Under the pieces are notes generated by a model. The model did no database searches, was not told where the DNA came from, and was given only the letters and a program-made list of their open reading frames with translations. Positions 4,922 to 64,000 of a stretch of 64,000 bases of DNA are shown here, one piece after another (position 1 is the stretch's first letter; each line of letters begins with the position of its first letter). Source of the DNA: Nemertoderma westbladi (Eukaryota > Animalia > Xenacoelomorpha); NCBI GenBank assembly GCA_032718475.1, contig JAUCBJ010008198.1, positions 60,151-124,150 of the forward strand, read 5' to 3'. Made by a program: the position numbers and the translations under genes.

Positions 4922-5034
4922 AAATCTCTCTATCTCTCTCAGGGAAAATCGACTAAAATAATAGCTTATATGTTTTATAACCAACCGGGTCTCTACGGAG
5001 CCCCTAAAAGGTACATTTTGAAAATAGTTTATAT

Positions 5035-8000
5035 AGAGCGTACTAGACATATTTTCTAGTGCGTACTAGACACATTTTCTAGTGCGCTCTAGATACACTT
5101 TCTAGTGCGTACTAGACACATTTTCTAGTGCGCTCTAGATACACTTTCTAGTGCGTACTAGACACATTTTCTAGTGCGCTCTAGATACACTTTCTAGTGC
5201 GTACTAGATACATTTTCTAGTGCGTACTAGACACATTTTCTAGTGCGTACTAGATACATTTTCTAGTGCGTACTAGATACACTTTCTAGTGCGTACTAGA
5301 CACATTTTCTAGTGCGCTCTAGATACACTTTCTAGTGCGTACTAGACACATTTTCTAGTGCGCTCTAGATACACTTTCTAGTGCGTACTAGATACATTTT
5401 CTAGTGCGTACTAGACACATTTTCTAGTGCGTACTAGATACATTTTCTAGTGCGTACTAGATACACTTTCTAGTGCGTACTAGACACATTTTCTAGTGCG
5501 CTCTAGATACACTTTCTAGTGCGTACTAGACACATTTTCTAGTGCGCTCTAGATACACTTTCTAGTGCGTACTAGATACATTTTCTAGTGCGTACTAGAC
5601 ACATTTTCTAGTGCGTACTAGATACATTTTCTAGTGCGTACTAGATACATTTTCTAGTGCGTACTAGACACATTTTCTAGTGCGTACTAGACATATTTTC
5701 TAGTGCGTACTAGATACATTTTCTAGTGCGTACTAGACACATTTTCTAGTGCGTACTAGATACATTTTCTAGTGCGTACTAGATACATTTTCTAGTGCGT
5801 ACTAGACACATTTTCTAGTGCGTACTAGACATATTTTCTAGTGCGTACTAGATACATTTTCTAGTGCGTACTAGACACATTTTCTAGTGCGTACTAGACA
5901 TATTTTCTAGTGCGTACTAGATACACTTTCTAGTGCGTACTAGATACATTTTCTAGTGCGTACTAGACACATTTTCTAGTGCGTACTAGATACATTTTCT
6001 AGTGCGTACTAGATACATTTTCTAGTGCGTACTAGACACATTTTCTAGTGCGTACTAGACATATTTTCTAGTGCGTACTAGATACATTTTCTAGTGCGTA
6101 CTAGACACATTTTCTAGTGCGTACTAGACATATTTTCTAGTGCGTACTAGATACACTTTCTAGTGCGTACTAGATACATTTTCTAGTGCGTACTAGACAC
6201 ATTTTCTAGTGCGTACTAGATACATTTTCTAGTGCGTACTAGATACATTTTCTAGTGCGTACTAGACACATTTTCTAGTGCGTACTAGACATATTTTCTA
6301 GTGCGTACTAGATACATTTTCTAGTGCGTACTAGACACATTTTCTAGTGCGTACTAGACACATTTTCTAGTGCGTACTAGATACATTTTCTAGTGCGTAC
6401 TAGATACATTTTCTAGTGCGTACTAAATACATTTTCTAGTGCGTACTAGACACATTTTCTAGTGCGTACTAGATACATTTTCTAGTGCGTACTAGATACA
6501 TTTTCTAGTGCGTACTAGACACATTTTCTAGTGCGTACTAGACATATTTTCTAGTGCGTACTAGATACATTTTCTAGTGCGTACTAGACACATTTTCTAG
6601 TGCGTACTAGACATATTTTCTAGTGCGTACTAGATACATTTTCTAGTGCGTACTAGATACATTTTCTAGTGCGTACTAGACACATTTTCTAGTGCGTACT
6701 AGACATATTTTCTAGTGCGTACTAGATACATTTTCTAGTGCGTACTAGACACATTTTCTAGTGCGTACTAGACATATTTTCTAGTGCGTACTAGATACAT
6801 TTTCTAGTGCGCACTAGATACATTTTCTAGTGCGTACTAGATACACTTTCTAGTGCGCTCTAGATACATTTTCTAGTGCGTACTAGATACATTTTCTAGT
6901 GCGTACTAGATACATTTTCTAGTGCGTACTAGATACACTTTCTAGTGCGCTCTAGATACACTTTCTAGTGCGTACTAGATACATTTTCTAGTGCGTACTA
7001 GACACATTTTCTAGTGCGTACTAGATACATTTTCTAGTGCGTACTAGATACATTTTCTAGTGCGTACTAGACACATTTTCTAGTGCGTACTAGACATATT
7101 TTCGTAGTTTTTAGGCGTACTAGATACATTTTCTAGTGCGTACTAGACACATTTTCTAGTGCGTACTAGACACATTTTCTAGTGCGTACTAGATACACTT
7201 TCTAGTGCGTACTAGATACATTTTCTAGTGCGTACTAGACACATTTTCTAGTGCGTACTAGATACATTTTCTAGTGCGTACTAGATACATTTTCTAGTGC
7301 GTACTAGACACATTTTCTAGTGCGTACTAGACATATTTTCTAGTGCGTACTAGATACATTTTCTAGTGCGTACTAGACACATTTTCTAGTGCGTACTAGA
7401 CACATTTTCTAGTGCGTACTAGATACATTTTCTAGTGCGTACTAGATACATTTTCTAGTGCGTACTAGACACATTTTCTAGTGCGTACTAGACACATTTT
7501 CTAGTGCGTACTAGATACATTTTCTAGTGCGTACTAGATACATTTTCTAGTGCGTACTAGACACATTTTCTAGTGCGTACTAGACATATTTTCTAGTGCG
7601 CTACTAGATACATTTTCTAGTGCGTACTAGACACATTTTCTAGTGCGTACTAGATATACTTTCTAGTGCGCTCTAGATACATTTTCTAGTGCGTACTAGA
7701 CATATTTTCTAGTGCGTACTAGATACATTTTCTAGTGCGCACTAGATACATTTTCTAGTGCGTACTAGATACATTTTCTAGTGCGTACTAGATACATTTT
7801 CTAGTGCGTACTAGATACATTTTCTAGTGCGTACTAGACATATTTTCTAGTGCGTACTAGATACATTTTCTAGTGCGCACTAGACACATTTTCTAGTGCG
7901 TACTAGATACATTTTCTAGTGCGTACTAGACACATTTTCTAGTGCGTACTAGACATATTTTCTAGTGCGTACTAGATACATTTTCTAGAGCGTACTAGAT

Positions 8001-9586
8001 ACATTTTCTAGTGCGTACTAGATACATTTTCTAGTGCGTACTAGACACATTTTCTAGTGCGTACTAGATACATTTTCTAGTGCGTACTAGACACATTTTC
8101 TAGTGCGTACTAGACATATTTTCTAGTGCGTACTAGATACATTTTCTAGTGCGCACTAGATATACTTTCTAGTGCGCTCTAGATACATTTTCTAGTGCGT
8201 ACTAGACACATTTTCTAGTGCGTACTAGATATACTTTCTAGTGCGCTCTAGATACATTTTCTAGTGCGTACTAGACACATTTTCTAGTGCGTACTAGACA
8301 CATTTTCTAGTGCGCACTAGATACATTTTCTAGTGCGTACTAGACACATTTTCTAGTGCGTACTAGATACATTTTCTAGTGCGTACTAGACACATTTTCT
8401 AGTGCGTACTAGACATATTTTCTAGTGCGTACTAGATACATTTTCTAGTGCGCACTAGATACATTTTCTAGTGCGTACTAGACACATTTTCTAGTGCGTA
8501 CTAGATACATTTTCTAGTGCGTACTAGACACATTTTCTAGTGCGTACTAGACATATTTTCTAGTGCGTACTAGATACATTTTCTAGTGCGCACTAGATAT
8601 ACTTTCTAGTGCGCTCTAGATACATTTTCTAGTGCGTACTAGACACATTTTCTAGTGCGTACTAGATATACTTTCTAGTGCGCTCTAGATACATTTTCTA
8701 GTGCGTACTAGACACATTTTCTAGTGCGTACTAGACACATTTTCTAGTGCGCACTAGATACATTTTCTAGTGCGTACTAGACACATTTTCTAGTGCGTAC
8801 TAGATACATTTTCTAGTGCGTACTAGACACATTTTCTAGTGCGTACTAGACATATTTTCTAGTGCGTACTAGATACATTTTCTAGTGCGCACTAGATACA
8901 TTTTCTAGTGCGTACTAGACACATTTTCTAGTGCGTACTAGATACATTTTCTAGTGCGTACTAGACACATTTTCTAGTGCGTACTAGACATATTTTCTAG
9001 TGCGTACTAGATACATTTTCTAGTGCGCACTAGATATACTTTCTAGTGCGCTCTAGATACATTTTCTAGTGCGTACTAGACACATTTTCTAGTGCGTACT
9101 AGATATACTTTCTAGTGCGCTCTAGATACATTTTCTAGTGCGTACTAGACACATTTTCTAGTGCGTACTAGACACATTTTCTAGTGCGTACTAGACACAT
9201 TTTCTAGTGCGTACTAGACATATTTTCTAGTGCGTACTAGATACATTTTCTAGTGCGCACTAGATACACTTTCTAGTGCGCACTAGATATACTTTCTAGT
9301 GCGCTCTAGATACATTTTCTAGTGCGTACTAGACACATTTTCTAGTGCGTACTAGACACATTTTCTAGTGCGTACTAGACACATTTTCTAGTGCGTACTA
9401 GACATATTTTCTAGTGCGTACTAGATACATTTTCTAGTGCGCACTAGATACACTTTCTAGTGCGCACTAGATATACTTTCTAGTGCGCTCTAGATACATT
9501 TTCTAGTGCGTACTAGACACATTTTCTAGTGCGTACTAGATACATTTTCTAGTGCGCACTAGATACACTTTCTAGTGCGCACTAGA
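5035..9586. repeat. 23-bp palindromic satellite, block 1 (~198 units)
   Basis: Unit CTAGTGCG(T/C)ACTAGA(T/C)ACATTTT; the variant TCTAGTGCGCACTAGA is a perfect 16-bp palindrome. Confidence 0.97.
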
Positions 9587-9867
9587 ATTAGCAATAGCAT
9601 ATTATTATTACATAAAAGCAGTAGGCCTACAGCATACTAAACTCTGAAACCAAACAACTGAAATTCAGCACTGTCTGACTGTGTTTTGATAATACCGTTA
9701 CCTACCCACTGCTGGATTGTGGTTGGTAGCTGACCCTGGGGGTGTAGAACAGAGCCGTCTACACCCAGATATATGGTGAAGACACCAGGGCCGGTGATTC
9801 CCAACAGTACAGTAACTACCGGGTACCTTAGGCCTACCGGCACCGTACCATACTCGCATGGTTTATC

Positions 9868-12800
9868 ATGGAGAACGTTAGGAAGCTGACAACGGTGCGT
9901 CTTAAAAAGATGTTGGCCGCACACCACGTCTCCACAATGGGAAGTCGCAGCGAACTACTAATCCGTGCTGAGCGCGTAATGCGCAGTGTCTCAAGGCACA
10001 CTGAGAGGAGTTTAGCAATCCGGGACGAACTGGCAGACCCGAGGATGATCTGGGACGAACCCCCCGACCCGACGATGATCCGGGACGAACTTGCCAACCC
10101 GACGATGATCCGGGATGAGCCTGTCCACCCGACGATGATCCGGGACAAACCTTCTGAACCGAGGATGATCCGGGACGAACTTTCCGACCCGACGATTATC
10201 CGGGATGAGTCTGTCGACCCGACGATGATCCGGGACAAACCTTCTGAACCGAGGATGATCCGGGACGAACTTGCCAACCCGAGGATGATCCGGGACGAAC
10301 CCCCCGACCTGACGATGATCCGGGACGAACCTGTCGACCAGATGATGATCCGGGACAAACCTTCTGAACCGAGGATTATCCGGGATGTACTTGCCGACCC
10401 GACGTCGATCCGGGACGAGCCTGTCGACCCGACGATGATCCGGGACAAACCTTCTGAACCGAGGATGATCCGGGACGAACTTGCCAACCCGAGGATGATC
10501 CGGGACGAACCCCCCGACCTGACGATGATCTGGGACGAACCTGTCGACCCGACGATGATCCGGGACAAACCTTCTGAACCGAGGATGATCCGGGACGAAC
10601 TTGCCGACCCGAGGATGATCCGGGACGAACCTGCCGACCCAAGGATGATCCGGGACGAGCTTGCCAACCCGAGGATGATCCGGGACGAACCCCCCGACCC
10701 GACGATGATCTGGGACGAACCCGCCCACTCAACGATGATCCGGGAAGTACTTGCCGACCCGACAATGATCCGGGACGAACCCGCCGACCCGACAACGATC
10801 CGGAACGAACCTGCCGACCCGAGGATGATCCGGGATGAACCCCCCGACCCGACGATGATCCGGAACGAACCTGCCGACCCGAGGATGATCCGGGATGAAC
10901 CCGCCGGCCCGAGGATGATCCGGGACGAACCTTCCAATCCGAGGACGATCCGGGATGAACCCGCCGTCCCAAGGATGATCCAGGATGAACCTTCCAATCC
11001 GAGGATGATCCGGGATGAACCCACCATCCCGACGATGATCCGGAACGAACCTGCCGACCCGAGGATGAACCGGGACGAACCCGCCGGCCCGAGGATGATC
11101 CGGGACGAACCTTCCAATCCGAGGACGATCCGGGATGAACCCGCCGTCCCAAGGATGATCCAGGATGAACCTTCCAATCCGAGGATGATCCGGGATGAAC
11201 CCGCCATCCCGAGGATGATCCGGGACGAACCTCCTGAACCGAGGATGATTTGGGACGAACCTGCCGACCCGAAGTTGATCCCCGACGAACCCGCTGACCC
11301 TAGGATGATCCGGGACGAACCCGCCAACCCGAGGATGATCCGTAACAGGGCCAATGCATCGATGGGGATGCGGCAACCACAGGCGGACGTTATCGACATA
11401 ACGCCAACCCCAACCTTTCCACAGCTCCCGGGATGGGTAGGCCCGGGTATCCATACAGCCCATGACCCAGCCCGGAGAAGCTCAGAGATCGGGTATTCTC
11501 ATAACTACCAACTCCGGCCTAAACTTGACAGAAACAATGGGTTAGTTAGTTACTCATCTATAATAGGTAACATTTACAGTCCCACACATCTTATACAAAC
11601 ATCACATACCAGCACACAATTACCCCAGACAAACCCGACACCCCTGACATACCCCACACCATCACACCAGGAACTCTCACCACCATTGCCCCAATTGAAC
11701 ATCACAGAGCATCCCTCAACAAACCACCACGCCCACTTCACTGGTGTCATGGTCGAAGATCTTCATAGTGATGGCATATGGAGGCCCAGGGACGTTACAG
11801 TCAGGGATATTCCAATTTCTGTTTCGAATTCCAAGCTTTTGGACCACATGCCATGTACTGATCGAGCAGTCACTCAATCAGGGGCTTGCAGGACAGACCA
11901 ATCATATGGGGGGCATCTCCAACCAACTAGCGGCCCATCCGGCATGTCCACTCCAGAGTTGATAGACATTTCTGACAATGCATTGCTTCAGGTGACAGAC
12001 CTCAATCTACCCTCAACTGTCACAGACTCACAAGCACTAATGTCTAAAGCAAAAAGAAGTAAAATTTCTGATTTCTTCAAACCAATTACACATAAGAAGG
12101 GTGGAATAACTCCAGACCATCCAACCACCATCATTACATCGACAGAAAACTCCAATCATATGGTAATGTCAAACATTAACCGTAACAAGGATGTGGTGTA
12201 CATGGGAGAACACAAATATTCCCAAGGAGAAGTAAACAAATTTTATCCTGACACAGACTTAGAGCATGATGATGTGCGAATTAGGGATGCCATCCTCAAA
12301 ACACCAGTAATAAATAGCAAAGTGATTATTAAGCCATCAGACCCAGACTGGGACTACCTACAACCAGGATGCAAACTTTCAACTGTCATTGTGGATTCTT
12401 TTTTATCTATTTTAAATAACTCAATGGGAGATGATAGAATAGGTTGTATCGACTCAAGTCTTTGTAGCAAGTTGCATCAAGAAAGGTTCGACTATGCAAG
12501 TGCCTTGAAATATATCACATCTACCTGTAACATAAGATCTACATCACTGTGCCTCTTTCCTGACTGCTTCAATGACCACTTCGTTCTGCATATTGCTAAT
12601 CTCAGCGACCATAGTGTATATACTTTATGCAGCATCAATGCGATGACTCGACCATCAACTGTGACTCGGAGAATCTGTAAACTGCTAAACTCAATCGAAT
12701 ATGTTTCTGGAGGGGCAAAAAGTTCATGGACTGCCGTCTCCCACATCAACAATTACCCCCTTCAAAAACCTCTAAGCAAAGATTGCGGCGTATTTGCATG

Positions 12801-14577
12801 CCTATATGCGACTATGGTATCCACCGGTAATAGTCTATCAGGTGAGATACAAAATGCTAACCTGCGACAATGGTTACTACAGTGCCTCGTGGACCATAAA
12901 CTACGAGATCCAGAAACCCTGGATCCTGTTCACTTACCAGACTTAAATGCACCAACCATCACGGACCCGACATTAGCAGGTACCATCACCACCAAGCACC
13001 ATAACATACAGGAACAGAAATCCTCACAATGCATCAATTTATTTGGACTTATACAGCACCCCCGAAAGAAAGCAATCAATCTAATAGCTAATACTGCAAA
13101 TGGGGACTTATCAAAGCATAGGAATAAGTTATTCGAGGACTTAAAATCATTTATGTCACCTCTACAGCAGCTGTCACTACAGCTCTATCCACGGAACTCT
13201 CATAGGGAGTTAGCCACTGATGTATATGAGATGCTCTTAGCTATTCGAGAAAAGGTCCTTTCAAACCAATGCCGCAAGAGGATGTATACAACAGATAATA
13301 TCAAACTGGACAAAAATGAACAGGACAACATACGGCTTCTGAGAAATGACTTCATAACTGCTATCGCATCCCTACAATCACGCATCTGCCTACTCGAAAC
13401 CAATAACGACAAACTAAAAGAGCAAAATAAGACAATAGAACAAGATTTAAATCATGAGCGTAACTCCCGGATTGTACTGGAGGAAAAGTTTCGGAATATC
13501 ATTTCAACCAGGAAACAGGGCAACTCTGCCATAGGCACGCAATGCACCCTGACCCCAAGTAATGATACGGAATCCGACTGGCTGATAATAGACTCAATTA
13601 ATGATGATGACGACTTACCAGGAACTTTTTCTTCACCCGAATCAACTTTACATGAAGTAAAATTCCAGGATGAGCGCAGTAGCCAGCAATCGAAGGATTA
13701 TAGTACTTCATTCAGTATGCCGAGGAACAAACATGTAGCAAAACAACCGCCACGGCAAAGGGACATGGGCGGTACAATCATTGGCCCCAACCCTTATCAC
13801 CTACTAAGTAATTTCGATACCGATAACACAATGTCAGACACTACCAGCAGACACACTACTGTCCGTAAAGATAAGCAGCAACAGCATGTCGTTCAACATC
13901 AACCAAAGAGGATTACCAAAAGAATTGCAGTGAACTCGGGAAATAATTGCAAGGGAGAGGACAACTTAATCAATTCTGAAAGATGTGGAGTTCCATTGAT
14001 GTGCGCCGAATCACGCCTCAGAGTACAACTCTTTATTTCTGGCATTAATAAGAACAACACCGAGGATGATGTAGTAAACTTCCTTATCGAAAGGAAAATT
14101 GCTGTGCATCGAATCACAACTCGCCTACATGGAGATGGGAAAAGCGTTCGCCTTACTACTGACGCTAACCTTAAAGATACTCTTATGCACAATGCATTCT
14201 GGCCTTCTGGGATTGTATGTAAAGAATGGGTCACAAACCCAGATAGACATGCAACTAATGACTGGCAAGGACGACGTTCAAGAAAGCAATCTGACAACAG
14301 TTCTGCACTAAACCATAAGGAACAGCATAGCTCCCCAGATGCCTCCAAAGAATCTTCTATAGATGATCACTCCCGTAGTTTTCATGAGAAATCAAGAAAA
14401 CATAACTACAGAGCACCAAGTGACTTGAGATGCTACAGTGCAATCACGCATGATCTTAACAGGCAGGAAAACTCCAAAGCAGACACAAGACAACACAAGC
14501 GAGATTACATGAAACACTACCAAATCGCACAGGATTACTATCTGACGAGGAATCCACTTAACAGGTCTCATTTTTAA
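9868..14577 (+). CDS. LINE ORF1 (1569 aa): SAP-like motif, ~44 x 10-aa repeats, Ulp1/SENP-like C48 protease domain, coiled coil, RRM-like domain
   Basis: SAP-like KLTTVRLKKMLAAHHVSTMGSRSELLIR. C48-like LQPGCKLSTVIVDSF..FPDCFNDHFVL..PLQKPLSKDCGVFAC. Heptad region ~13360-13490. LFISGINKNNTEDDV..SVRL..FWPSGIVCKEW is typical of CR1/L2-group ORF1 RRMs. Confidence 0.85.
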   Translation: MENVRKLTTVRLKKMLAAHHVSTMGSRSELLIRAERVMRSVSRHTERSLAIRDELADPRMIWDEPPDPTMIRDELANPTMIRDEPVHPTMIRDKPSEPRMIRDELSDPTIIRDESVDPTMIRDKPSEPRMIRDELANPRMIRDEPPDLTMIRDEPVDQMMIRDKPSEPRIIRDVLADPTSIRDEPVDPTMIRDKPSEPRMIRDELANPRMIRDEPPDLTMIWDEPVDPTMIRDKPSEPRMIRDELADPRMIRDEPADPRMIRDELANPRMIRDEPPDPTMIWDEPAHSTMIREVLADPTMIRDEPADPTTIRNEPADPRMIRDEPPDPTMIRNEPADPRMIRDEPAGPRMIRDEPSNPRTIRDEPAVPRMIQDEPSNPRMIRDEPTIPTMIRNEPADPRMNRDEPAGPRMIRDEPSNPRTIRDEPAVPRMIQDEPSNPRMIRDEPAIPRMIRDEPPEPRMIWDEPADPKLIPDEPADPRMIRDEPANPRMIRNRANASMGMRQPQADVIDITPTPTFPQLPGWVGPGIHTAHDPARRSSEIGYSHNYQLRPKLDRNNGLVSYSSIIGNIYSPTHLIQTSHTSTQLPQTNPTPLTYPTPSHQELSPPLPQLNITEHPSTNHHAHFTGVMVEDLHSDGIWRPRDVTVRDIPISVSNSKLLDHMPCTDRAVTQSGACRTDQSYGGHLQPTSGPSGMSTPELIDISDNALLQVTDLNLPSTVTDSQALMSKAKRSKISDFFKPITHKKGGITPDHPTTIITSTENSNHMVMSNINRNKDVVYMGEHKYSQGEVNKFYPDTDLEHDDVRIRDAILKTPVINSKVIIKPSDPDWDYLQPGCKLSTVIVDSFLSILNNSMGDDRIGCIDSSLCSKLHQERFDYASALKYITSTCNIRSTSLCLFPDCFNDHFVLHIANLSDHSVYTLCSINAMTRPSTVTRRICKLLNSIEYVSGGAKSSWTAVSHINNYPLQKPLSKDCGVFACLYATMVSTGNSLSGEIQNANLRQWLLQCLVDHKLRDPETLDPVHLPDLNAPTITDPTLAGTITTKHHNIQEQKSSQCINLFGLIQHPRKKAINLIANTANGDLSKHRNKLFEDLKSFMSPLQQLSLQLYPRNSHRELATDVYEMLLAIREKVLSNQCRKRMYTTDNIKLDKNEQDNIRLLRNDFITAIASLQSRICLLETNNDKLKEQNKTIEQDLNHERNSRIVLEEKFRNIISTRKQGNSAIGTQCTLTPSNDTESDWLIIDSINDDDDLPGTFSSPESTLHEVKFQDERSSQQSKDYSTSFSMPRNKHVAKQPPRQRDMGGTIIGPNPYHLLSNFDTDNTMSDTTSRHTTVRKDKQQQHVVQHQPKRITKRIAVNSGNNCKGEDNLINSERCGVPLMCAESRLRVQLFISGINKNNTEDDVVNFLIERKIAVHRITTRLHGDGKSVRLTTDANLKDTLMHNAFWPSGIVCKEWVTNPDRHATNDWQGRRSRKQSDNSSALNHKEQHSSPDASKESSIDDHSRSFHEKSRKHNYRAPSDLRCYSAITHDLNRQENSKADTRQHKRDYMKHYQIAQDYYLTRNPLNRSHF
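10018..11343 (+). repeat. In-frame 30-bp coding minisatellite in ORF1 (~44 units, IRDEPADPRM-like)
   Basis: Every unit is 30 bp (ATCCGGGACGAACC..GA(C/G)GATG), with many substitutions but no frameshifts. Confidence 0.95.
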
Positions 14578-14593
14578 CAATGGATTCAAGGAT

Positions 14594-17500
14594 ATGCCAG
14601 TCGCAAATACCAAAATAACCAAATATACAGAAAACTGCACTGGCCCCACCCTCACAGAACATCAAGCCAAGACATCTCCAAAGGACATTCCATCTCCAAA
14701 GGTGGACTCTGCAGCGAATAAGAACACTGGTACTAGCAACACGGATTATAAATCTTCTAAAGTAAGACTTACATTAGGATCCTTTAACTGCCACGGGTAC
14801 TCGAGTAGCATCGATCAGATATACAAACTGCTTGAAGTATGCGATGTCATTGGAATTCAGGAGCACTGGATGGATGCTATAGAGCTTGATCATGTAGCTA
14901 AGAAATCATTCAATGAAAACTTCGAGCTCGTATACTCCACCAGCGATTTAATGAATAACCCTAATAGGGTTAGAGGCGCTGGAGGGGTAGCCTTGGCATT
15001 CCGCAGAGGTAAAGTATGTAACTGGGCCAAAGTCGCTTCTGGGGACGACATTGTTGGAATAATTGGTGACACTGGCAATGTTCGCGTTCTTCTACTTTCA
15101 GGCTATGCTCCAGACTCTAACAAAAACATTCAAAGTTATAATGAGCATCTTGGTCGCCTTACTGCTTTAATCGCCATGTACCCAGTGGCAATCCCTATCA
15201 TTATGATGGATGCTAACGCGGACTTAGGGTCTGAACAAGGACCACGATTTCACAGACCCAATGCAACAGACCGCGGTCTCATTCTGAACAACTTCCTACT
15301 CAACCACAATCTTACAGCTATAGACACACTTGACAACGTGGCAGGACCAGCATATACTTATATTGGGGGTGGTCATCGGAGTTATATCGACCACATTGTG
15401 ATGCCTATCAATGGTCCATTTAAAGTCATAGGGGGATACATCATAGAACATGACGAAGCAGAAAATTTTTCTGATCATCTACCAATCGTGATTTCAATCA
15501 ACTGTGACGTTGCAAAGGAAGGGTTGGTGGAACAAACTGCTACAAAACAGACGCCTATACGATTTAACTGGAGAAGCGCATCCAAAAAACAGAAAGACCA
15601 GTACTATCGAACCTTAGATAATCACCTTGAGGGGATGGCATTACTCGCTATCGACACCATAGACGACCTCAATACTCTTGCCAACAACATTAACTCTGCG
15701 TTACACAAATCAGCACTTGAATCTATTAATGTAATAAAAAAGAAAAGGACAACCAAAAATTATAGAATACGCTCAGCTACTCTTTCGGAGCGATGCCGAA
15801 CCACCCGCAGCCTGTACAACCTATGGGTCAATAATGGGAAAGATCCTAACGATGAGGTGGGGATCGCCTTCAAACAGTCCAAACGCGGAGTACGACAACT
15901 AAAAAATGCACTTATGAAGACACACGTTGCAAGATCGGTCGGTGAAGTAACTCACAAGCTGAAGTGCAACCCAAAGGGTTTCTGGCGTAAATTTTCAAAC
16001 AAGGGAACTTCAAGTACACCACCAACTCAGATTCAGGAACAAATACGTCAGTCATATAGGGACAGAATCACAAGAAACGTTACTAGTACTACCAATATCA
16101 CCGATAATTTGGACAGACAATGCAAGAATACTACTATGCCTACCATATCTGAAGAAACTATAAGGAAATCTATTCTATCGTTATCGGTAGGGAAGTCGCC
16201 AGACCTCAATTCTATAACAGTGGAGCACCTTTTATCCGCCAACCCCGAGACTATGTGTCACCTGTTAGCAAATATGTACAATGCAAGTATACGTATTGGC
16301 ATGGTGCCCGATGTTTTTGGAGCAACTATCATAACAAGTCTATTCAAAGGGAAGAGGAAGGATCCCATGAGAACTAACTCTTATAGACCGATTGCCAGCA
16401 TATGCCTATTAGCAAAGGTACTCGAGCGTATAATATACAAGGGCTTCCTTGAGAATATCCTTCCAAGAAACGACTATCAGTTAGCATATAAAGAACATGT
16501 GGGATGCGAGGCTGCCATCGGTTTGATACTGGAATGTATACAACACTTTAGTGAACTAGGATCAGGTCTGTATATGTGCCAACTTGATATCAAATCCGCT
16601 TTTGACGAAGTTGACCACGCAGTTCTCTTCGAGAAGTTATCAGGAATTATAAACCCATTCATTTGCCGTCTACTGGTTCATTATTACAGCATCGCCATGG
16701 TGTACCTCAAGTTTGGAAATCTGATAGATGTGGTTGGCATAAATATGCCTAGAGGGATCATGCAAGGATCATTACTGTCACCATGCTTATTTAATCTTTA
16801 CACCATCAGCGTCATGCAGTCGCTAACTGAATCCGGACTGGGGTGCATGATCAACGATATCTGGTTCGGCTGCATAATGTATGCTGATGATGTTTTTCTT
16901 TTAGCCACTACAATACAGGAAATAGAACTCATGTCAAATATACTGAACATGGGGCTCGATAAGTTACAACTAATGTTCGAGCCGTCTAAATGTCACTGGA
17001 TGTACAGCGAAGCTAACAACAACACTTACATACCGTGTTTCCTCAATATTAATGGGCAGCTAATACCGGAAAGTCAGACAATCGAGTTCCTGGGCTACAC
17101 TCTTTCTTCCAACAAAACTAGCGCACACGCTGCCGCAGAGTGCACTCAGCATATATGGAAAATGGGAGGAATTTTTCAACAGAAAGGGTGGACATCGCAA
17201 TGGTTAGATACCGAAACATTATCATATCTCTGGAAGTCACTTGTAATCCCAAGCTTGACATACAAGCTGAAGTATACGATTGGTAACCTGAGCAAGAATG
17301 ACATATCTCGTATCGATTCAGCATATAGACAGGCTCTACGCCGACTTCTGCATGTTGGAGTATATATAAACAACGACACATTATACGAACTCCTGAATAT
17401 TTTGCCTCTCAGCACCATGGCCTATCGTGGCGCCGTGTCAACATTATTGCAAATACTTAGATGCCCTATATTCACCTTACAAACTAGCTTCCGGTACATT

Positions 17501-17764
17501 GCTTTGGATAATGCGATATCCCGCACGTTATACAGGGGCCTTATGAGCACCTACAGACGAGCAAAGGAAACTCACCAAATCCCTTCCATGTGGTCTATAC
17601 TAACATGTGAATATGACAAACGTGCACTTTTGACAGGACTTCAAACTGGCAATAGCTCGCTTGACGACATAATCTGTGCTAATTTTGTAAAGAATTGCTA
17701 CGATCTGCACGGAGTAACTTTTAAAACTAAACATAATAGAATACTACAATTTTACGGATTTTAA
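14594..17764 (+). CDS. LINE ORF2: apurinic-like endonuclease plus reverse transcriptase (1056 aa)
   Basis: APE motifs SFNCHG, IQEHW, GGVA, YAP, DAN, YIDH, SDHLP. RT motifs KSPD, YRPIA, LDIKSAFD, GIMQGSLLSPCLFNLY, YADD, FLG. Confidence 0.95.
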   Translation: MPVANTKITKYTENCTGPTLTEHQAKTSPKDIPSPKVDSAANKNTGTSNTDYKSSKVRLTLGSFNCHGYSSSIDQIYKLLEVCDVIGIQEHWMDAIELDHVAKKSFNENFELVYSTSDLMNNPNRVRGAGGVALAFRRGKVCNWAKVASGDDIVGIIGDTGNVRVLLLSGYAPDSNKNIQSYNEHLGRLTALIAMYPVAIPIIMMDANADLGSEQGPRFHRPNATDRGLILNNFLLNHNLTAIDTLDNVAGPAYTYIGGGHRSYIDHIVMPINGPFKVIGGYIIEHDEAENFSDHLPIVISINCDVAKEGLVEQTATKQTPIRFNWRSASKKQKDQYYRTLDNHLEGMALLAIDTIDDLNTLANNINSALHKSALESINVIKKKRTTKNYRIRSATLSERCRTTRSLYNLWVNNGKDPNDEVGIAFKQSKRGVRQLKNALMKTHVARSVGEVTHKLKCNPKGFWRKFSNKGTSSTPPTQIQEQIRQSYRDRITRNVTSTTNITDNLDRQCKNTTMPTISEETIRKSILSLSVGKSPDLNSITVEHLLSANPETMCHLLANMYNASIRIGMVPDVFGATIITSLFKGKRKDPMRTNSYRPIASICLLAKVLERIIYKGFLENILPRNDYQLAYKEHVGCEAAIGLILECIQHFSELGSGLYMCQLDIKSAFDEVDHAVLFEKLSGIINPFICRLLVHYYSIAMVYLKFGNLIDVVGINMPRGIMQGSLLSPCLFNLYTISVMQSLTESGLGCMINDIWFGCIMYADDVFLLATTIQEIELMSNILNMGLDKLQLMFEPSKCHWMYSEANNNTYIPCFLNINGQLIPESQTIEFLGYTLSSNKTSAHAAAECTQHIWKMGGIFQQKGWTSQWLDTETLSYLWKSLVIPSLTYKLKYTIGNLSKNDISRIDSAYRQALRRLLHVGVYINNDTLYELLNILPLSTMAYRGAVSTLLQILRCPIFTLQTSFRYIALDNAISRTLYRGLMSTYRRAKETHQIPSMWSILTCEYDKRALLTGLQTGNSSLDDIICANFVKNCYDLHGVTFKTKHNRILQFYGF

Positions 17765-18093
17765 GTTTGTTCCTTTATTGCATACTCTTAATTCGAACCG
17801 TATACATACTTATATATAACTATATCGATTTGATTAATGTTAATTATAACGTGTCGTCCCTATGCTATACTAACCCTACCCAACATTGATTGTATAATCA
17901 CTGGTGCCATTTTTAAGCTTTATTTTTAGCCAACTATTGACTTATATTTTATTTAATAATTTAGTAGTGATGTTGATCCTGTTCGTTTACTATGATTTTA
18001 TAATAGTGTAATCGGCATAATTGTATAATCGTCACAATTTTACTAATAAATGCCAGCTAGCCTGGTTTGCGCTTATGTGCGCGAGTATAATAA

Positions 18094-19250
18094 TATACTT
18101 TCTAGTGCGCTCTAGATACATTTTCTAGTGCGCTCTAGATACACTTTCTAGTGCCCACTAGATATACTTTCTAGTGCGCTCTAGATACATTTTCTAGTGC
18201 GCACTAGATACACTTTCTAGTGCGCTCTAGATACATTTTCTAGTGCGCACTAGATACACTTTCTAGTGCGCTCTAGTCTAGATACATTTTCTAGTGCGCA
18301 GTAGATACACTTTCTAGTGCGCTCTAGATACATTTTCTAGTGCGCTCTAGATACACTTTCTAGTGCGCTCTAGATACATTTTCTAGTGCGCTCTAGATAC
18401 ATAGATACATTTTCTAGTGCGTACTAGACACATTTTCTAGTGCGTACTAGATACATTTTCTAGTGCGTTCTAGATACACTTTCTAGTGCGCTCTAGATAC
18501 ATTTTCTAGTGCGCTCTAGATACATAGATACATTTTCTAGTGCGTACTAGACACATTTTCTAGTGCGTACTAGATACATTTTCTAGTGCGCACTAGATAC
18601 ACTTTCTAGCGCGCACTAGATATACTTTCTAGTGCGCTCTAGATACATTTTCTAGTGCGCTCTAGATACACTTTCTAGTGTGCTCTAGTCTAGATACATT
18701 TTCTAGTGCGCAGTAGAAACACTTTCTAGTGCGCTCTAGATACATTTTCTAGTGCGCACTAGATACACTTTCTAGTGCGCACTAGATATACTTTCTAGTG
18801 CGCTCTAGATACATTTTCTAGTGCGCTCTAGATAAATAGATACATTTTCTAGTGCGTACTAGACACATTTTCTAGTGCGTACTAGATACATTTTCTAGTG
18901 CGCACTAGATAAACTTTCTAGTGCGCACTAGATACACTTTCTAGTGCGCTCTATATACATTTTCTAGTGCGCTCTAGATACACTTTCTAGTGCGCACTAG
19001 ATACATTTTCTAGTGCGCACTAGATACATTTTCTAGTGCGCTCTAGATACACTTTCTAGTGCGCTCTAGATACATTTTCTAGTTCGCACTAGATACACTC
19101 TCTAGTGCGCTCTAGATACATTTTCTAGTGCGCTCTAGATACACTTTCTAGTGCGCTCTAGATACATTTTCTAGTGCGCTCTAGATACACTTTCTAGTGC
19201 GTACTAGATACATTTTCTAGTGCGCTCTAGATACACTTTCTAGTGCTCTA
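18094..19250. repeat. 23-bp palindromic satellite, block 2 (~50 units)
   Basis: Same unit as block 1; resumes in register after the LINE. Confidence 0.95.
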
Positions 19251-28398: not shown

Positions 28399-30891
28399 CT
28401 AGTACACAGTGAATGGCGGAAAATCCATTTCATAGAGAGCTAAGGAGCCGCCCCCAGTTTTCTGTGGCGCCCCAGCTACTGGGGGACAGGGTTGGGCAAT
28501 CAGCTCCAGTGTGTGGCCTATATAGTCCTGCCAAGAAGCTTCTTTAATCTGGCAACGAGCCGCGATCTCCGCTAGCGGAGTAGTCCGACAGTAACGAACG
28601 ACCCGCTCTCGCTCCACATCTTCCAACTCATCCTTGTCGAGTTCCAACTGCAGAGACTTCTTTAACGTCTCAAAGGTGATTGGTTCCCCGTCCCCGGGGA
28701 ACTTCCTCGATCCAAAGGGAGTCGAAGCGGCCGAGTCGATCTCGATAGATATAGCGGAAACGTCGAGGGAATGGCGACGCAGTGCAGGGTCGCTAAACGA
28801 ACTCGGATGGAAGGGCGCGCGGAGTTTGGCTACGTCGAGGTTGCTCGCATCCATCGCGTCGCGGATCGCGTCCAGATCCAACAGGAACTCAGGACGAACC
28901 GGGGTGCCGCCGGCCGGGGGGTTCGCGACGCCAGACAGACCCTCCAGCGCCTCTAGCGGCATCAGATAGCGCGCGTTTGCCTCCCTCCGCAGCAGAACGG
29001 CCCGCACCACGCGGTGAAACTGAGTCGTCTCGTTGCTAAGCTGCGAAACGAAGTCGACAAACGCGAGGATGAGAGCGTGCAGGACGAAGCAGTGGGAACG
29101 CGGGAGGTTGCATTCGGGAGCCTCCGAGTCCGCCTGGATACGGAATGTTAGTCGGATTAGGTCGGTTAGAAAGCTGTCGTTGTCCCCGAGTTCAATAGAG
29201 AGTAGACAGAGGGCCGTGTAGATCGCGTTGTAATGTTCCGCACCGTTGGTTGGCTGCATACAGGCGCCGTACAGATGACTCAGTATCGTCTGACCGTTCT
29301 TCCGTAGGAAGATGGCGTCCTGCTTCGACGTCTCTCCCACGCGATCTCGTTTGAGTCGGAGGTCGGAGAGTCGCTCGTAGGTCGTCATGACGGCGAGTTT
29401 CTCCGCGTTCCCGTGGCGGTCCAGCAGCGTGTGGAGGATGTGGAGCGCGAGGGAGCGGATCTCCGCGACCGGGGTCAGGAAGAGTTTGAGGAAGGGCTGC
29501 AGGAAGGAGGAGGGAAAGGTTGTGGTCATAGCGACGGTCTGGTAATGACTCCCGATCCTTAGTAGTGTCCGTAGGAGGGTCGGGAGGTAGGAGGAGTTCT
29601 CGTCGGGTTCCGGGAGTCGGGAAATAACGAACTGCATCACGTCGATCTTCTGGAAGTCCGGGAGTCGCTTCGAGAAGTCGCCGATGACCCGGATCAGGTT
29701 GTCGATGTAACCGGATTCCGCTTCGACGTGCCGTTGCCGCCCCGTAGTCGCCACTCCTTCCTTGGCCGCGTTGAGGACGTCGCAACTGAAGCGGACCTGC
29801 CGAATCAACTCGTTGAATATCTCGAGGACGGAAGGGCCGACGCTGCCGCTGGGGTTCACTCGAACCGCCTCGTCGAATACGTCGACGATGCCGCTACGGA
29901 GGGCCGGTTCGTCATCCTTGTGGACGTCGAGATGCGAGATGAGCGACTTGAAGGCGTAGTTACTGTACTGGTTGTGGTAGGAGAACACGACGATCTTGAA
30001 CAGGGCCTTCGGGAAAGCGATCCGTTGGGGGGACCACAGGCGGCTGTGGTCGAGGTGCCGCAGGGTCGGGTTCAGGATGTTGTTCACGTTGTTGAATCCG
30101 GCCTTGGAGAGCAGGTCGCAGAAACAGGAGTCCGCGAGCTCAGCCGGTTCTTCCGAGTCGATCGCGCGGGTCTGTCGCTCCGCGATGTGACGCTCGTGTT
30201 CCCCCGGCTTCCCGGGGGCGTCGACCACGTCGCCGGTGATCCCGGTGGCTGCGTAGACCGCGTCCTGCTGCATGTTGTAGAGCAGCGACGGGACTATCAT
30301 GTCCATGTGGACCGCGGCCCAGATGTTGGCCTGGAGTTCGTCGGTCACGGTTTTCCGGACGACCCCCTGCAGGCCCTTGATCCCGGCCACTCGGACCTGT
30401 TTACGGATGTCCCCGTCGCCCTTGTCGCTACCGGTATCAGTGTGACACATCGCGCTAAACTTCTGGATGAAGAAGTCGTACTCCCGATGGTAAGAGGGAT
30501 TGTCCTCGTCGATGTTGGCAAATTTTGCGAACGATTGACTTCCGAGGATCTGCAGTTGGAATTTATCGGATTCTAAAAGTTCCGTTATCATTTTTAAGAA
30601 ACTCTCTACGAAAAGATTCAAACTTTGCGACGGAGAGGAAACCAGAAGAGAGTCGACAGCTTCCATGGTAATAGCAACGTAACCAATCTTCCCTTTCTTG
30701 ATGTAGTAGGACAATCTCTTGAACAAATAACTCCCGATGTGATAGAGTTTCTCTGGCTTCGATATGGAGTAGAACGTGAGTTTATCCATGTTGGATTTAA
30801 TGAGACTTCCGGCTTGGGAGTTCACCGGGAATATGTTGTCTACGAGACGACGCCATCGTGGCTTACACGAGGAACAACATCCCGTTGGCAT
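28399..30891 (-). CDS. EFR3: EFR3 homologue (plasma-membrane scaffold of the PI4KIIIalpha complex), single exon, 830 aa
   Basis: N-terminal Cys cluster plus KPRWRRLVDNIFP, MDKLTFYS..PEKL, FANIDEDNPSYHR, GLQGVVRKTVTDELQ, IVPSLLYNMQ, PITFETLK and C-terminal YEMDFPPFTVY. Confidence 0.95.
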   Translation of the reverse strand: MPTGCCSSCKPRWRRLVDNIFPVNSQAGSLIKSNMDKLTFYSISKPEKLYHIGSYLFKRLSYYIKKGKIGYVAITMEAVDSLLVSSPSQSLNLFVESFLKMITELLESDKFQLQILGSQSFAKFANIDEDNPSYHREYDFFIQKFSAMCHTDTGSDKGDGDIRKQVRVAGIKGLQGVVRKTVTDELQANIWAAVHMDMIVPSLLYNMQQDAVYAATGITGDVVDAPGKPGEHERHIAERQTRAIDSEEPAELADSCFCDLLSKAGFNNVNNILNPTLRHLDHSRLWSPQRIAFPKALFKIVVFSYHNQYSNYAFKSLISHLDVHKDDEPALRSGIVDVFDEAVRVNPSGSVGPSVLEIFNELIRQVRFSCDVLNAAKEGVATTGRQRHVEAESGYIDNLIRVIGDFSKRLPDFQKIDVMQFVISRLPEPDENSSYLPTLLRTLLRIGSHYQTVAMTTTFPSSFLQPFLKLFLTPVAEIRSLALHILHTLLDRHGNAEKLAVMTTYERLSDLRLKRDRVGETSKQDAIFLRKNGQTILSHLYGACMQPTNGAEHYNAIYTALCLLSIELGDNDSFLTDLIRLTFRIQADSEAPECNLPRSHCFVLHALILAFVDFVSQLSNETTQFHRVVRAVLLRREANARYLMPLEALEGLSGVANPPAGGTPVRPEFLLDLDAIRDAMDASNLDVAKLRAPFHPSSFSDPALRRHSLDVSAISIEIDSAASTPFGSRKFPGDGEPITFETLKKSLQLELDKDELEDVERERVVRYCRTTPLAEIAARCQIKEASWQDYIGHTLELIAQPCPPVAGAPQKTGGGSLALYEMDFPPFTVY

Positions 30892-32732: not shown

Positions 32733-34640
32733 TGTCTCAAGCGATCATTTTATAGTTTTTTTGCAAAAGAAAGACACAAAAATCTTTTTTCGGGGATCAT
32801 AAAATAGTAACAGTTAGGTCTATGAAAATTACAGCAAGGAACGCTTTTTAAGTTTGTTAGTTAATTCTGACTGGGAACCCTGTTTTAAGGCCGCTGACAT
32901 TAACCTTACGTACACAGTTTCTAAAGGCACTTAATTCTTAATTCTTAATTCTGTAGCACCAATTAAAGAAATTAGTCTTAAACAACGCACTGAGCCCTGG
33001 ATGACCTCGGGTATTCTTAGTAATATCAGAAAGAGATAACTATTTGTATAAATTTAGGAAATACCGTGTTTTAGCTGATTATAATAATTACTGCAAATAT
33101 AGAAACCTTGTCCAACGGGAAATAAAAAAAGCTAAATCTGAATATTTGTACAACAAAATAAGTGAGAATAAAGATAATCCTAAAAGTCTATGGTCTACCC
33201 TAAAATCTTTAGGTTATAAAAACCTTAAATCTAAATCGAATATTGTTCTGCAAGATAACGGTGAGCTGATTCATGATCATACTCTAGTTAGTAATTTATT
33301 TAATAATTATTTTACTAATGTTGCCTCTAATTTAGTTAAGAAGTTACCGTTATCAAGTAATAAATATAGTATAGGGTCCGAAACTCTAAATAATTTTTAT
33401 TTAGAAATGTTCCAAAATTCAGAAAAGTTATTTTTAAAACCCGTTTCTGAGGATTTCGTTTTTCAAAATCTACTTAGCCTATCAGCCTCAAAAAGTACCG
33501 GTCTAGACCTAATACCTGCCCGTTTTCTTAAGGATGGTGCTGAAGTACTTAAAGCGCCTATTACTTTTATTATTAATTACTCTATCGTAGATAATGTAGT
33601 ACCAGACGAACTGAAATTAGCTAAGGTTGTTCCTCTGTATAAAAAGAATAGTAAAGTAGAACCCTGTAATTAGAGACCTGTTAGTATCTTAAGTATTGTA
33701 TCTAAAATTCTAGAACGTTCTGTTTTTCTACACTTTCGTAAATCATATTCTACAGACACCTGCCTAATTAACTTAACTGATACAATTAGATGTAATAACG
33801 CAAAGGGTTTATATACTGGTATGGTAATGTTGGACCTACAAAAGGCTTTCGATACTGTAGATCATGAAATTATGCTTGGTAAGTTAGGCATGATGGGTGT
33901 AGGTTATATAGACTGGTTCAAGTCCTACCTGTCAGACAGAGGTCAAACTGTAGTCATTAGCAAATCGCAGTCTACTGTACAAGAGATCACCTGTGGTGTA
34001 CCGCAAGGTAGTATATTAGGTCCTCTGCTTTTTGTATGCTATGTAAATGATATGATAAGTAGTATAGATCCCGATTTTAAACTCATTTTATATGCCGACG
34101 ACAGTGCTCTTATTTTCTCTCATAAAGATCCTATCCATATTTCCCAAAAGTTAAGTGCAGTTCTAGAATCCTGTAATGAGTGGTTGGTTGATAATAAGCT
34201 ATCCATTCACTACGGTAAGACTGAAAGTATTTTGTTTGGTTCCAAAAGAAAGTTAAAGAAGGTAACTAAGTTTGAAGTCACTAGTAATGGACATAAGATT
34301 GAAAATAAAAAGGAAGTTAAATATTTAGGCGCCACATTGGATAACTGCTTATCAGGAGAAAGTACAGTGAAAAATATTTTCTCGAAAGTTAACAGTAGGC
34401 TTAGGTTTCTATACAGAAATAAAAATAGTTTAAACACCGACTCCCGCAAGTTACTTTGCTCTTCTTTAATACAGTGTCACATGGACTATGCGTGCTCTTC
34501 TTGGTATGAAGGCTTAACCAAACAGCTTAAATGTAAATTACAAGTAGCTCAGAATAAAGTAGTATGATTTATTAAAGACTACACAAACCTAGGCACCACC
34601 TAACTCCAGATGACTTTTCTGAATCTATCGGATTCGGCTA
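31690..34640 (+). pseudogene. Decayed CR1-clade LINE ORF2 (endonuclease plus RT)
   Basis: HLNAR, ISETWL, RKDRDRHGGGV, YRPP, SDFN, SDH; [35 protein letters not shown]. Broken by stops (33671, 34565), frameshifts, a deletion near 33730 and a MITE. Boundaries are approximate. Confidence 0.92.
32419..32738. mobile_element. hAT-like MITE inserted in the CR1 endonuclease SDH motif
   Basis: 8-bp TSD AAGCGATC (32411-32418, 32739-32746); TIR CAGATAG(G)nACTGGACGCAA versus reverse complement GAGACAG(G)nACTGGACGCAA. Confidence 0.8.
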
Positions 34641-53201: not shown

Positions 53202-54200
53202 CTACAGTCTCTCCCTGTCGTGAGGTTCATTGTAATTAACTTCTGGACCAATCGGAACGATTCTATGCGGATTGATAGACTCATGAGACATGAAGTAATG
53301 CTTCTTGATGTGATCGAGGTTAGTAGTCTCCCCAAAGGCGGGTATCTGATATAGTTCCTTCGTGTAATTCCATATGTTCGGGTAATCTTTTAGTCGCCTA
53401 AGATTACACTTAAAGTGGCAAACATAAACCGGGTCAAACCGCACCAGAGTGGGATACAATCGAATATCAGCTTCCGTTATTTTATCTCCAGTTAAATAGC
53501 GATTCTTCGATAGAATATCTTCTACTCGATCTAGACAAGCAAACAGAGCTGTAACTTCCTTCTCATGAGCTTCTTGGCGGGTCGCAAAGCCTGACTTGTA
53601 AACGCCGTTGTTGATTCCGGTATAAATCCAATCGTTGAGTTCATCTATCTCCTTTCTCAGAGCTTCCGGGTAGAAGTCGAGCTGCGCCTGTTCCTCAGTG
53701 GCGCTAAATCTGTTGAACTCTGAATTCAACATTCTAATAATTTCACTACTTTCGTTATTGACTATCGTCTCGTTGAATTTATCGTAGAGGACTGGGACGC
53801 TGACAGTTGATGCGTATCCCGGGACATCCGAAGTATAGACCTCGCGAAGGTATTTCCTACCATTGATCGTATCGCCTGTGGTACCCGGGTAACTCGCATC
53901 AAAACTCCATCCTTCCTTTCCAAGAAGATAATGAACAACGTTGAATGAAATCACATCCTCCAGGCCTTTCAGCTTTCTCATAATCAGGGTTCTGTGAGCC
54001 CAAGGACACGCATAGCAAACGTATAAATGATACCGACCCTTCCATGCAGCAAACTCGTGGGTTCCATCAACAAGTTTTGGCTTTTTTGCGGCCACCGGTT
54101 GGATCCAATTTCTAAACTCGCTTGCCCTTCTTTTATATTCACCGTCTTTATCGATATTCTTATTCCAAGCTGCAACAACAGAAGCATTTGTCTCGGCCAT
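53202..54200 (-). CDS. yqjG: Glutathionyl-hydroquinone reductase (Xi-class GST, YqjG/ECM4 family), copy 1, intronless, 332 aa
   Basis: GRYHLYVCYACPWAHRTLI (CPWA active site), SVPVLYDK, IVNNESSEIIRM, INNGVYKSGFA, LVRFDPVY..HFKCN, HIKKHYF.SH..INP..IVPIGP. Start taken as ATG 54200 (MAETN). The symbol is a family-level label. Confidence 0.93.
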   Translation of the reverse strand: MAETNASVVAAWNKNIDKDGEYKRRASEFRNWIQPVAAKKPKLVDGTHEFAAWKGRYHLYVCYACPWAHRTLIMRKLKGLEDVISFNVVHYLLGKEGWSFDASYPGTTGDTINGRKYLREVYTSDVPGYASTVSVPVLYDKFNETIVNNESSEIIRMLNSEFNRFSATEEQAQLDFYPEALRKEIDELNDWIYTGINNGVYKSGFATRQEAHEKEVTALFACLDRVEDILSKNRYLTGDKITEADIRLYPTLVRFDPVYVCHFKCNLRRLKDYPNIWNYTKELYQIPAFGETTNLDHIKKHYFMSHESINPHRIVPIGPEVNYNEPHDRERL

Positions 54201-54434
54201 GTTCGGTAAATAATTCGAATGAGAAAACGTGACGACGGACTTCTTAAAAAGTAAATCGGTAGGTCTACGACCAAGGAAATGAGTCAACAAGCCTAATCTT
54301 AACGTACTTCTACTAACCCACATTAAAATTACAGTAGTAGGTTCATGAGAATCTTAGGTCTGTGGGTACCGGTACCGTTACTGACACTGCTATACTGCAG
54401 TACCGTACTATATTGACGTGTCAGTATGTGTGAG

Positions 54435-63533: not shown

Positions 63534-64000
63534 TTCCTTAAGAAAGTCATAGTTACTCCCGCGGTTTACCCGCGCTTCAATGAATTTCTACGCAAATGTG
63601 ATAGGAGGTAGCCCCTAACTTCTATAGGTAACTTATATACGTTTTAACTGATCGACATTATAACTTAACATTTATATAACATACATAGACATATCAAAAA
63701 AAAACTGATGTTTTTTTTTTTTTTTTTTTTTTTTTTTGCGGATTTTAACTTCACCATAACTTCCTTAAGAGAGTCCCATAACTTCCTTAAGAAAGTCATA
63801 GTTACTCCCGCGGTTTACCCGCGCTTCAATGAATTTCTACGCAAATGTGATAGGAGGTAGCCCCTAACTTCTATAGGTAACTTATATACGTCTTAACTGA
63901 TCGACATTATAACTTAACATTTATATAACATACATAGACATATCAAAAAAAAACTGATGTTTTTTTTTTTTTTTTTTTTTTTTTTTGCGGATTTTAACTT
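63534..64000. repeat. ~249-bp tandem repeat (2 copies visible, runs off the window)
   Basis: TTCCTTAAGAAAGTCATAGTTACTCCCGCGG.. starts at 63534 and again at 63783. Confidence 0.9.

Follow-up and report, generated by a model that had tools for sequence, protein, structure and literature searches.

Ulp1 domains recur in unrelated transposons, and discussions of their role treat it as unknown or speculative (PMC2836005, PMC13317346). Among retrotransposons that lack long terminal repeats (non-LTR), the nematode NeSL elements and Utopia-1_TSP carry an Ulp1-like domain upstream of the reverse transcriptase (RT) in a single open reading frame (ORF) that also encodes a restriction-like endonuclease (Kojima and Jurka 2015, PMC4640811). 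Here we describe a long interspersed nuclear element (LINE) from a 64,000-nucleotide stretch of the Nemertoderma westbladi genome (assembly GCA_032718475.1, contig JAUCBJ010008198.1, positions 60,151 to 124,150 of the forward strand; hereafter the window), which resembles these elements in placing an Ulp1/SENP-like (C48) domain ahead of the RT but differs from them in having two ORFs and an apurinic/apyrimidinic-type (APE) endonuclease, with the C48 domain lying within ORF1 and accompanied by a SAP-like motif, decapeptide repeats and an RRM-like end. The main text of a survey of 448 Jockey/CR1/L2 ORF1s mentions no protease, Ulp1, SAP or SUMO (PMC4120745). In line with the initial annotation of the locus, which had been made from the sequence alone and named no such example, the literature we covered (Repbase, Dfam and most subscription journals lie outside this scope) yielded no two-ORF APE LINE with an Ulp1 domain described in its ORF1. 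The element thus combines an unusual active site with an accessory domain well known from transposons, in a position for which we have found no description.

Accessory proteases of this kind are also known from elements of other build. Ginger1, Mutator and Zisupton have Ulp1 domains, in Zisupton together with SAP, as accessory parts of animal transposons and could represent a donor pool, but they are cut-and-paste DNA transposons in which the domain sits on the transposase; Dualen, in turn, combines two endonucleases in a single long ORF. Ulp1 or OTU domains at the C-terminus have been described for Ginger1 and Mutator transposases (PMC2836005), and SAP for Zisupton and one Chlamys element (PMC8557442); the same source reports a Josephin domain in Dualen, which as a non-LTR element with a ubiquitin-pathway cysteine protease resembles the present LINE but uses a protease family other than C48. 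Finally, the Ulp1-bearing KIU and VANC proteins of the Mutator-like Vandal elements of Arabidopsis act in anti-silencing, the role of the Ulp1 part being unknown (PMC13317346). They share with the present ORF1 the pairing of a DNA-directed part with an Ulp1 domain in a transposon protein, in their case in an anti-silencing context. Their own features are a plant DNA transposon as carrier, a separate gene, a VANC domain with sequence specificity and the loss of methylation from DNA, none of which is apparent in the present element, to which no VANC profile or motif scan was applied.

The LINE, its parts and the satellite on either side are laid out as follows, in window coordinates:

5034 to 9586, no strand: left arm of a 23-bp satellite, which stops within a unit
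9587 to 18093, forward strand: full-length LINE of about 8.5 kb (flanking satellite read directly, unit counts computed)
9587 to 9867, forward strand: inferred 5' untranslated region, from the satellite end to the first ATG
9868 to 14577, forward strand: ORF1, 1569 aa
9877 to 9975, forward strand: SAP-like helix pair, aa 4-36 (Pfam SAP PF02037, below the cut-off)
10018 to 11342, forward strand: 44 repeats of 30 bp, an acidic proline-rich decapeptide spacer (repeat and translation analysis)
11389 to 11403, forward strand: first motif resembling a SUMO-interacting motif (SIM), VIDIT, aa 508-512 (motif pattern match)
11959 to 11976, forward strand: second SIM-like motif, LIDISD, aa 698-703 (motif pattern match)
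12331 to 12870, forward strand: Ulp1/SENP (C48)-fold domain, aa ~822-1001 (Pfam, PDB, protein, ESM Atlas and fold searches)
13318 to 13530, forward strand: predicted coiled coil, aa ~1151-1221 (weak Pfam match at aa 1163-1212, heptad-like sequence)
14047 to 14277, forward strand: RRM-like ORF1 C-terminal domain, aa 1394-1470 (protein search; common to related ORF1s)
14594 to 17764, forward strand: ORF2, 1056 aa, with an APE endonuclease at aa 62-295 and a reverse transcriptase at aa 591-837
17765 to 18093, forward strand: AT-rich 3' untranslated region, closing with a short TAA-type tail
18094 to 19246, no strand: right arm of the 23-bp satellite, which picks up in register

The C48-like domain named in the initial annotation was recovered by five kinds of search, although its Pfam score lies below the curated cut-off (PF02902, E 0.0038, 17.5 bits against 20.7), and a Pfam scan of the unsplit ORF1 returned just a weak coiled-coil match. 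A profile built from four other C48 domains, which had been collected by likeness to ORF1 itself and from which the window's row was excluded, detects aa 827-1000 at E 8e-18; SENP1 accounts for five of the six matches in the PDB sequence search, each of them weak (E 0.4-1.4); the best two of the ten matches in an exhaustive search of aa 780-1569 against 1.84 billion proteins are clear Pfam C48 proteins; and PF02902 is assigned to 27 of 30 ESM Atlas matches, the best scoring 0.95. Furthermore, a structural model of the domain computed from a five-row alignment (pLDDT 68.6) has SENP2, SENP5, SENP1 and Ulp1 as its leading fold matches (Foldseek E 1e-8 for SENP2 and SENP5), with a Z of 17.4 against SENP5 (164 residues aligned, root-mean-square deviation 3.4) and of 14.8 against the NEDD8 protease NEDP1. 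Sequence and model together assign aa ~822-1001 to a predicted Ulp1/SENP (C48) fold. Two scans of viral contigs for C48 relatives confirmed none of 356 and none of 136 stretches.

As the initial annotation had recognized, the domain retains His904, the oxyanion Gln966 and Cys973 within an intact DCGVF motif, all three invariant in the five C48 rows; it shares fold, His, Cys and oxyanion Gln with human SENP1/2/5 and yeast Ulp1 (PF02902) at 15-20% identity. In SENP1 the triad comprises His533, Asp550 and Cys603, while Trp465 forms the lid and Trp534 the floor of the Gly-Gly channel (PMC5030089). Here the triad Asp, 17 residues past the His, is replaced by Cys921, the lid Trp by Lys836 and the floor Trp by Phe905. 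The Asp is present in each of the other four rows, including P0038, a protein of NeSL/Utopia build with C48 and then RT in one 1651-aa frame, whereas the lid Trp recurs only in P0039, with Phe in P0038 and no aromatic lid in the remaining two. The SUMO removal envisaged for this ORF1 is consequently weakened, because two of five SENP active-site residues are replaced. The Tae1 amidase nevertheless offers a known case of Cys as third catalytic residue, and papain-like proteases commonly work with a Cys-His dyad (PMC10318531), such that catalytic activity appears plausible, with neither activity nor SUMO specificity to be assumed.

The same replacements raise the question of whether the domain cuts at all. 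A dead or near-dead C48 domain could serve, together with the SIM-like motifs, as a SUMO trap that sequesters or shields tagged proteins uncut; the loss of the triad Asp and lid Trp would fit this, and the selection described below demonstrates fold retention rather than catalysis. We nonetheless regard a trap as unlikely, as Cys973 (DCGVF), His904 and Gln966 are kept in both genomic variants among the places listed and dead enzymes usually lose their nucleophile. The SUMO-contact motif WLND is also altered in the domain, which would instead suit an active protease acting on NEDD8 or ubiquitin, either shielding the ORF1 and ORF2 proteins from degradation or tuning repair at the insertion site. 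Proteases for NEDD8 and for ubiquitin belong to the C48 fold (PMC10318531), NEDP1 scores little below the SENPs, and a repair role has been proposed for the Ulp1 and OTU domains of Ginger (PMC2836005); set against these, SIM-like motifs lie beside the domain and SUMO proteases rank first by both sequence and fold, which leaves a NEDD8- or ubiquitin-directed enzyme quite improbable.

Evidence that the module belongs to the LINE comes from three public DNA runs of two studies, two of which represent one sample and one of which may be the window's own source. They contain 87-91% of the words of 11400-17760, and every one of the 30 bins of 11350-18090 is reached by contigs from these runs, a comparison that starts downstream of the SAP and repeat part (9868-11349). 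A further run under the same species label (X5) reached 5 of the 30 bins and was given no weight. No RNA run was listed as containing the sequence, which has no bearing on whether the element is expressed. A second variant is present in all three runs, with 24 differences among 348 bases of the C48 domain. Among the differing places listed for 12230-12960 (40 of 45, including two where the window differs from most contigs and three from one run only), 38 fall in the C48 domain, 23 of them synonymous and 15 non-synonymous, against a synonymous share of 22-31% expected under neutrality (P 4e-7 to 1.4e-4). Counted by hand, 12430-12857 has 13 changed positions among 329 non-synonymous sites and 23 among 94 synonymous ones, for a ratio of roughly 0.16. 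His904 differs synonymously only, and no change affects Cys921, Gln966 or Cys973 among the places listed. Importantly, contigs of both variants run from the C48 domain into the ORF1 C-terminal part (bridging 12858-13451 and 12871-13060), which dates the synonymous excess to after the fusion. As the second variant shows this excess, the domain has been under selection and the one-off chance fusion contemplated in the initial annotation is refuted; the C48 front-end module is very probably a real, selected part of the LINE. A non-random list of the 40 top places gave 7 non-synonymous versus 3 synonymous in the linker and 5 versus 11 in ORF2.

For relatives we used the best 80 of 315 confirmed metagenome loci (L001-L080), drawn from 12 of the 64 parts of the collection. 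Like P0003, these RTE-sister LINEs share with the present element an APE-RT ORF2 that is 22-36% identical and contains the xEHW endonuclease motif, and the RRM-like ORF1 end, which in 23 of the 80 loci lies on the strand of the ORF2 match and right before ORF2; they differ in their ORF1s, the 12 intact, stop-bounded examples of which measure 327-611 aa and have no C48 match. None of the 80 loci, many of them too short for a long front end, has a C48 match below E 0.5, none of the 17 related ORF1s scanned has a Pfam C48 or SAP match, and a profile of the relatives' ORF1 N-terminal domain does not match the 1569-aa ORF1. The comparison indicates that this LINE lineage acquired the ~1000-residue front end. 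A word-index search with aa 790-1480 against proteins of 862-2746 aa found the combination in none of 4781 candidates, the exhaustive search of 1.84 billion proteins returned no match spanning both the C48 and RRM-like parts, and longer C48 fusions were limited to two of 5489 candidates, the restriction-like-endonuclease-type P0038 and a C48-only protein, which is weak evidence. One related locus (L007:89-1921) encodes a 611-aa ORF1 with ~220 extra N-terminal residues that have no Pfam match, and front ends may have been gained in other lineages of the same group too.

A gained front end could also be a passenger, an upstream capture of part of another transposon or of a host gene followed by in-frame fusion, with the selection signal stemming from its donor. 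The front end occurs in 0 of the 80 related loci (best 80 of 315), the closest C48 proteins either have no placement or come from retroelements, and the sample comparison covers 11350-18090 rather than the SAP and repeat part, all of which would be compatible with capture. However, the entire 8.5 kb lies inside one split satellite unit, a single frame stays open over 1569 codons, and the synonymous excess post-dates the fusion, the domain being linked in either variant to the C-terminal part of ORF1; we hold a mere passenger to be very unlikely.

The remainder of ORF1 and ORF2 define the LINE's affinities. The coiled coil and RRM described in the initial annotation hold up in part: the former has a weak Pfam match, and the latter is represented in relatives and attracts eight of the ten matches in the exhaustive search of aa 780-1569, but has no Pfam match, aa 1394-1470 being presumably an RRM; in the ESM Atlas, aa 1030-1480 matched only unnamed clusters with scores under 0.9. 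The CR1/L2-group label, in contrast, is not supported. ORF2 is distant from all sequences compared (best identities 24-32%), and in quick trees it forms a long branch joining the xEHW rows (SH-aLRT 97 with 61 rows, from which P0038 is absent, and 92 with 33 hand-kept rows that omit the long-branch P0004, P0008, P0014 and P0015), a group that adjoins RTE-like rows. Holding ORF2 with four L2/CR1-like rows was rejected (approximately unbiased test, p 0.0024). ORF2 would accordingly be placed in an RTE-sister group that we take to be RTEX-like; the RTEX, RTE and L2/CR1 labels of the tree rows are our assumption from their features, the tree holding no named RTEX reference. RTE and RTEX have been described as sister clades (PMC11203168), and esterases are cited as a feature of RTEX ORF1s (PMC3905857).

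The front end itself combines three kinds of sequence ahead of the C48 domain. A SAP motif at the ORF1 N-terminus is likely: PF02037 is the sole Pfam match to aa 1-51 (E 0.0034), in keeping with the SAP-like helix pair claimed initially, albeit at 17.4 bits against a cut-off of 23.9, and a search of the region against PDB sequences gave no match. The ~44 decapeptide repeats noted earlier correspond to 44 units of 30 bp, which are stop-free on both strands and vary nearly evenly over the three codon positions (46/51/61); the array therefore reads as a spacer, and coding selection on it is unproven, the variation being too even. The antisense ORFs at 9834-11399 and 10729-11463 were rejected as genes and considered by-products of the stop-free repeat.

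Two of the three SIM-like motifs originally listed, VIDIT and LIDISD, stand as candidates by pattern, whereas LIIDSINDDDD (13582-13614) lies behind the coiled coil and matches none of five SIM patterns. SIM-like motifs also precede the C48 domain in P0038 and P0018. The likeness to PIAS/Su(var)2-10 drawn in the initial annotation is confined to the pairing of SAP with SIM: neither PINIT nor SP-RING gave a Pfam match at E up to 1, with ORF1 scanned whole or in three parts, and ORF1 is therefore not a PIAS relative. In P0038 the SIM-like motifs ahead of C48 are three and spaced, and the pairing of SIM with Ulp1 may recur as a unit among retroelements. Within the linker, a 48-base island (11427-11475) recurs in contigs of all three runs (X1-X3) among unlike flanks (1-3 contigs per side) in which the same frame is open, two flanks differing from each other partly at third positions as judged by eye; it may mark further, more distant relatives that share a conserved linker motif, and it can form a stem, with a z of only -1.5.

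Gly-Gly sites bear on a further explanation, in which the protease frees an ordinary ORF1 protein of 350-550 aa from the SAP/repeat front end, much as viral CE-clan proteases process polyproteins. Adenovirus, poxvirus and African swine fever virus processing proteases have the same fold, the lost lid Trp would suit a peptide substrate, and Gly-Gly occurs at aa 681 and 745 ahead of the domain. Yet a total of four such sites is nothing unusual for a protein of 1569 aa, none lies between the end of the C48 domain and the coiled coil, and self-cutting alone would leave the module's gain unexplained, which makes self-processing a rather remote explanation.

We instead tentatively propose, with somewhat less than even confidence, that the C48 module could be a SUMO-removing protease carried on the LINE's RNA-protein particle. 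As in other LINEs, the coiled coil and RRM-like part would coat the RNA of the element itself, so that the module would ride with the particle in several copies at once and be carried by the RNA coat into the nucleus. There, the SAP helix pair would hold DNA or chromatin, the 440-residue repeat could provide reach as a flexible tether, and the two SIM-like motifs may dock onto SUMO-tagged proteins, whose tag Cys973 and His904, with Cys921 replacing the usual Asp, might cut slowly or with looser specificity. The gain, the least certain step, would be that silencing or repair factors dependent on SUMO are cleared locally, either where the element inserts or on the particle. In flies, transposons are repressed by SUMO and Su(var)2-10 (PMC7676866), and a more far-reaching version, which we judge improbable, would see the protein as a LINE-made eraser of the SUMO arm in PIWI-interacting RNA (piRNA)/heterochromatin silencing, with which the element could insert into satellite heterochromatin and remain active there. 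It would retain the SAP-plus-SIM reader layout of the host SUMO ligase with the writer swapped for a Cys-His-Cys SUMO protease, many copies of which the particle would bring to the insertion site.

Beyond the altered triad and lid positions, several observations count against a selected SUMO protease. The Pfam scores for SAP and C48 are both under their curated cut-offs; the fold search is in part circular, C48 rows having served to build the model, and a single-sequence model failed (pLDDT 42), its fold search giving noise. A narrow SIM pattern matches twice in the 311-aa linker against 0.01 expected, but was fitted with VIDIT and LIDISD in view, and a broad pattern matches three times against 1.1 expected (P 0.08). 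A 5-base deletion at 12284 marks the second variant in all three runs; it shifts the frame just before the domain and suggests that this variant has probably decayed, in a comparison that skips 12366-12399, where a compensating change would escape view; one intact variant only is thus in hand. The protein and metagenome searches yielded no distant relative with the same architecture. Finally, knockdown of the host Ulp1 in flies raised R1/R2 expression (PMC7676866), for which reason the net effect of a SUMO protease on silencing is not obvious.

The sample contigs show a few further peculiarities. Read in the window's letters, the shifted frame of the second variant reaches a stop at 12330, and in run X1 alone this variant skips 320 bases at 13060-13381 with 2 letters between (net 318, in frame). 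Patchy ORF2 contigs at 15011-16573, 16662-16745 and 17313-17520 suggest that the genome may contain a third family of greater divergence. Summed depth climbs from 5' to 3' in the three runs; it is not a copy number and was left unused.

An intact, selected C48 domain in ORF1, an abundant particle-coating protein, together with putative docking motifs offers a compact test case for the role of transposon-borne Ulp1 domains, and the catalogue of ORF1 types gains a protease-bearing form. If the domain were active on SUMO, a LINE protein would be tied directly to a SUMO-dependent silencing pathway and the CE clan would gain a Cys-His-Cys variant; if it erased the SUMO arm of silencing, the LINE would offer an equivalent, in an animal retrotransposon, of the VANC/KIU anti-silencing of plants.

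All features of the initial annotation fall inside the LINE, and its 1569-aa ORF1 ahead of an intact APE-RT ORF2 agrees in coordinates and Pfam domains: the two ORFs lie 16 bases apart on the forward strand, and ORF2 scores above the Pfam cut-offs for RVT_1 (E 3e-24) and Exo_endo_phos (E 1.5e-6). An ORF1 followed by an ORF2 with APE and RT, a short 3' tail and the lack of terminal repeats identify an APE-type non-LTR element. Excision of 9587-18093 restores one satellite unit, a variant present five times in the left arm, and as the flanking satellite represents the two halves of one unit, the element was inserted as a single piece, with no target-site duplication visible at either LINE/satellite junction. 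This is a single satellite insertion, and a preference for satellites does not follow from one site; the window is otherwise satellite-rich. Rfam gave no match at gathering score in the window, the LINE having one chance match and its 5' untranslated region none, and folding of five RNA stretches gave z values of -0.4 to -1.5, none significant.

Elsewhere in the window, 249-bp tandem units with 27-base T runs occupy 63534-64000; we take them to resemble the reverse complement of 28S rRNA beside the R2 insertion site, where Rfam at gathering score found nothing, and they are possibly leftovers of an rDNA-targeting element. A second, unrelated LINE RT fragment (33434-34567, RVT_1 E 5e-25, 24% identity to ORF2) runs into a 26-bp satellite. 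The reverse strand carries a PHD-finger ORF (1672-2373), an EFR3-like ORF (28399-30891) and two single-frame glutathione S-transferase ORFs (53202-54323 and 57221-58105).

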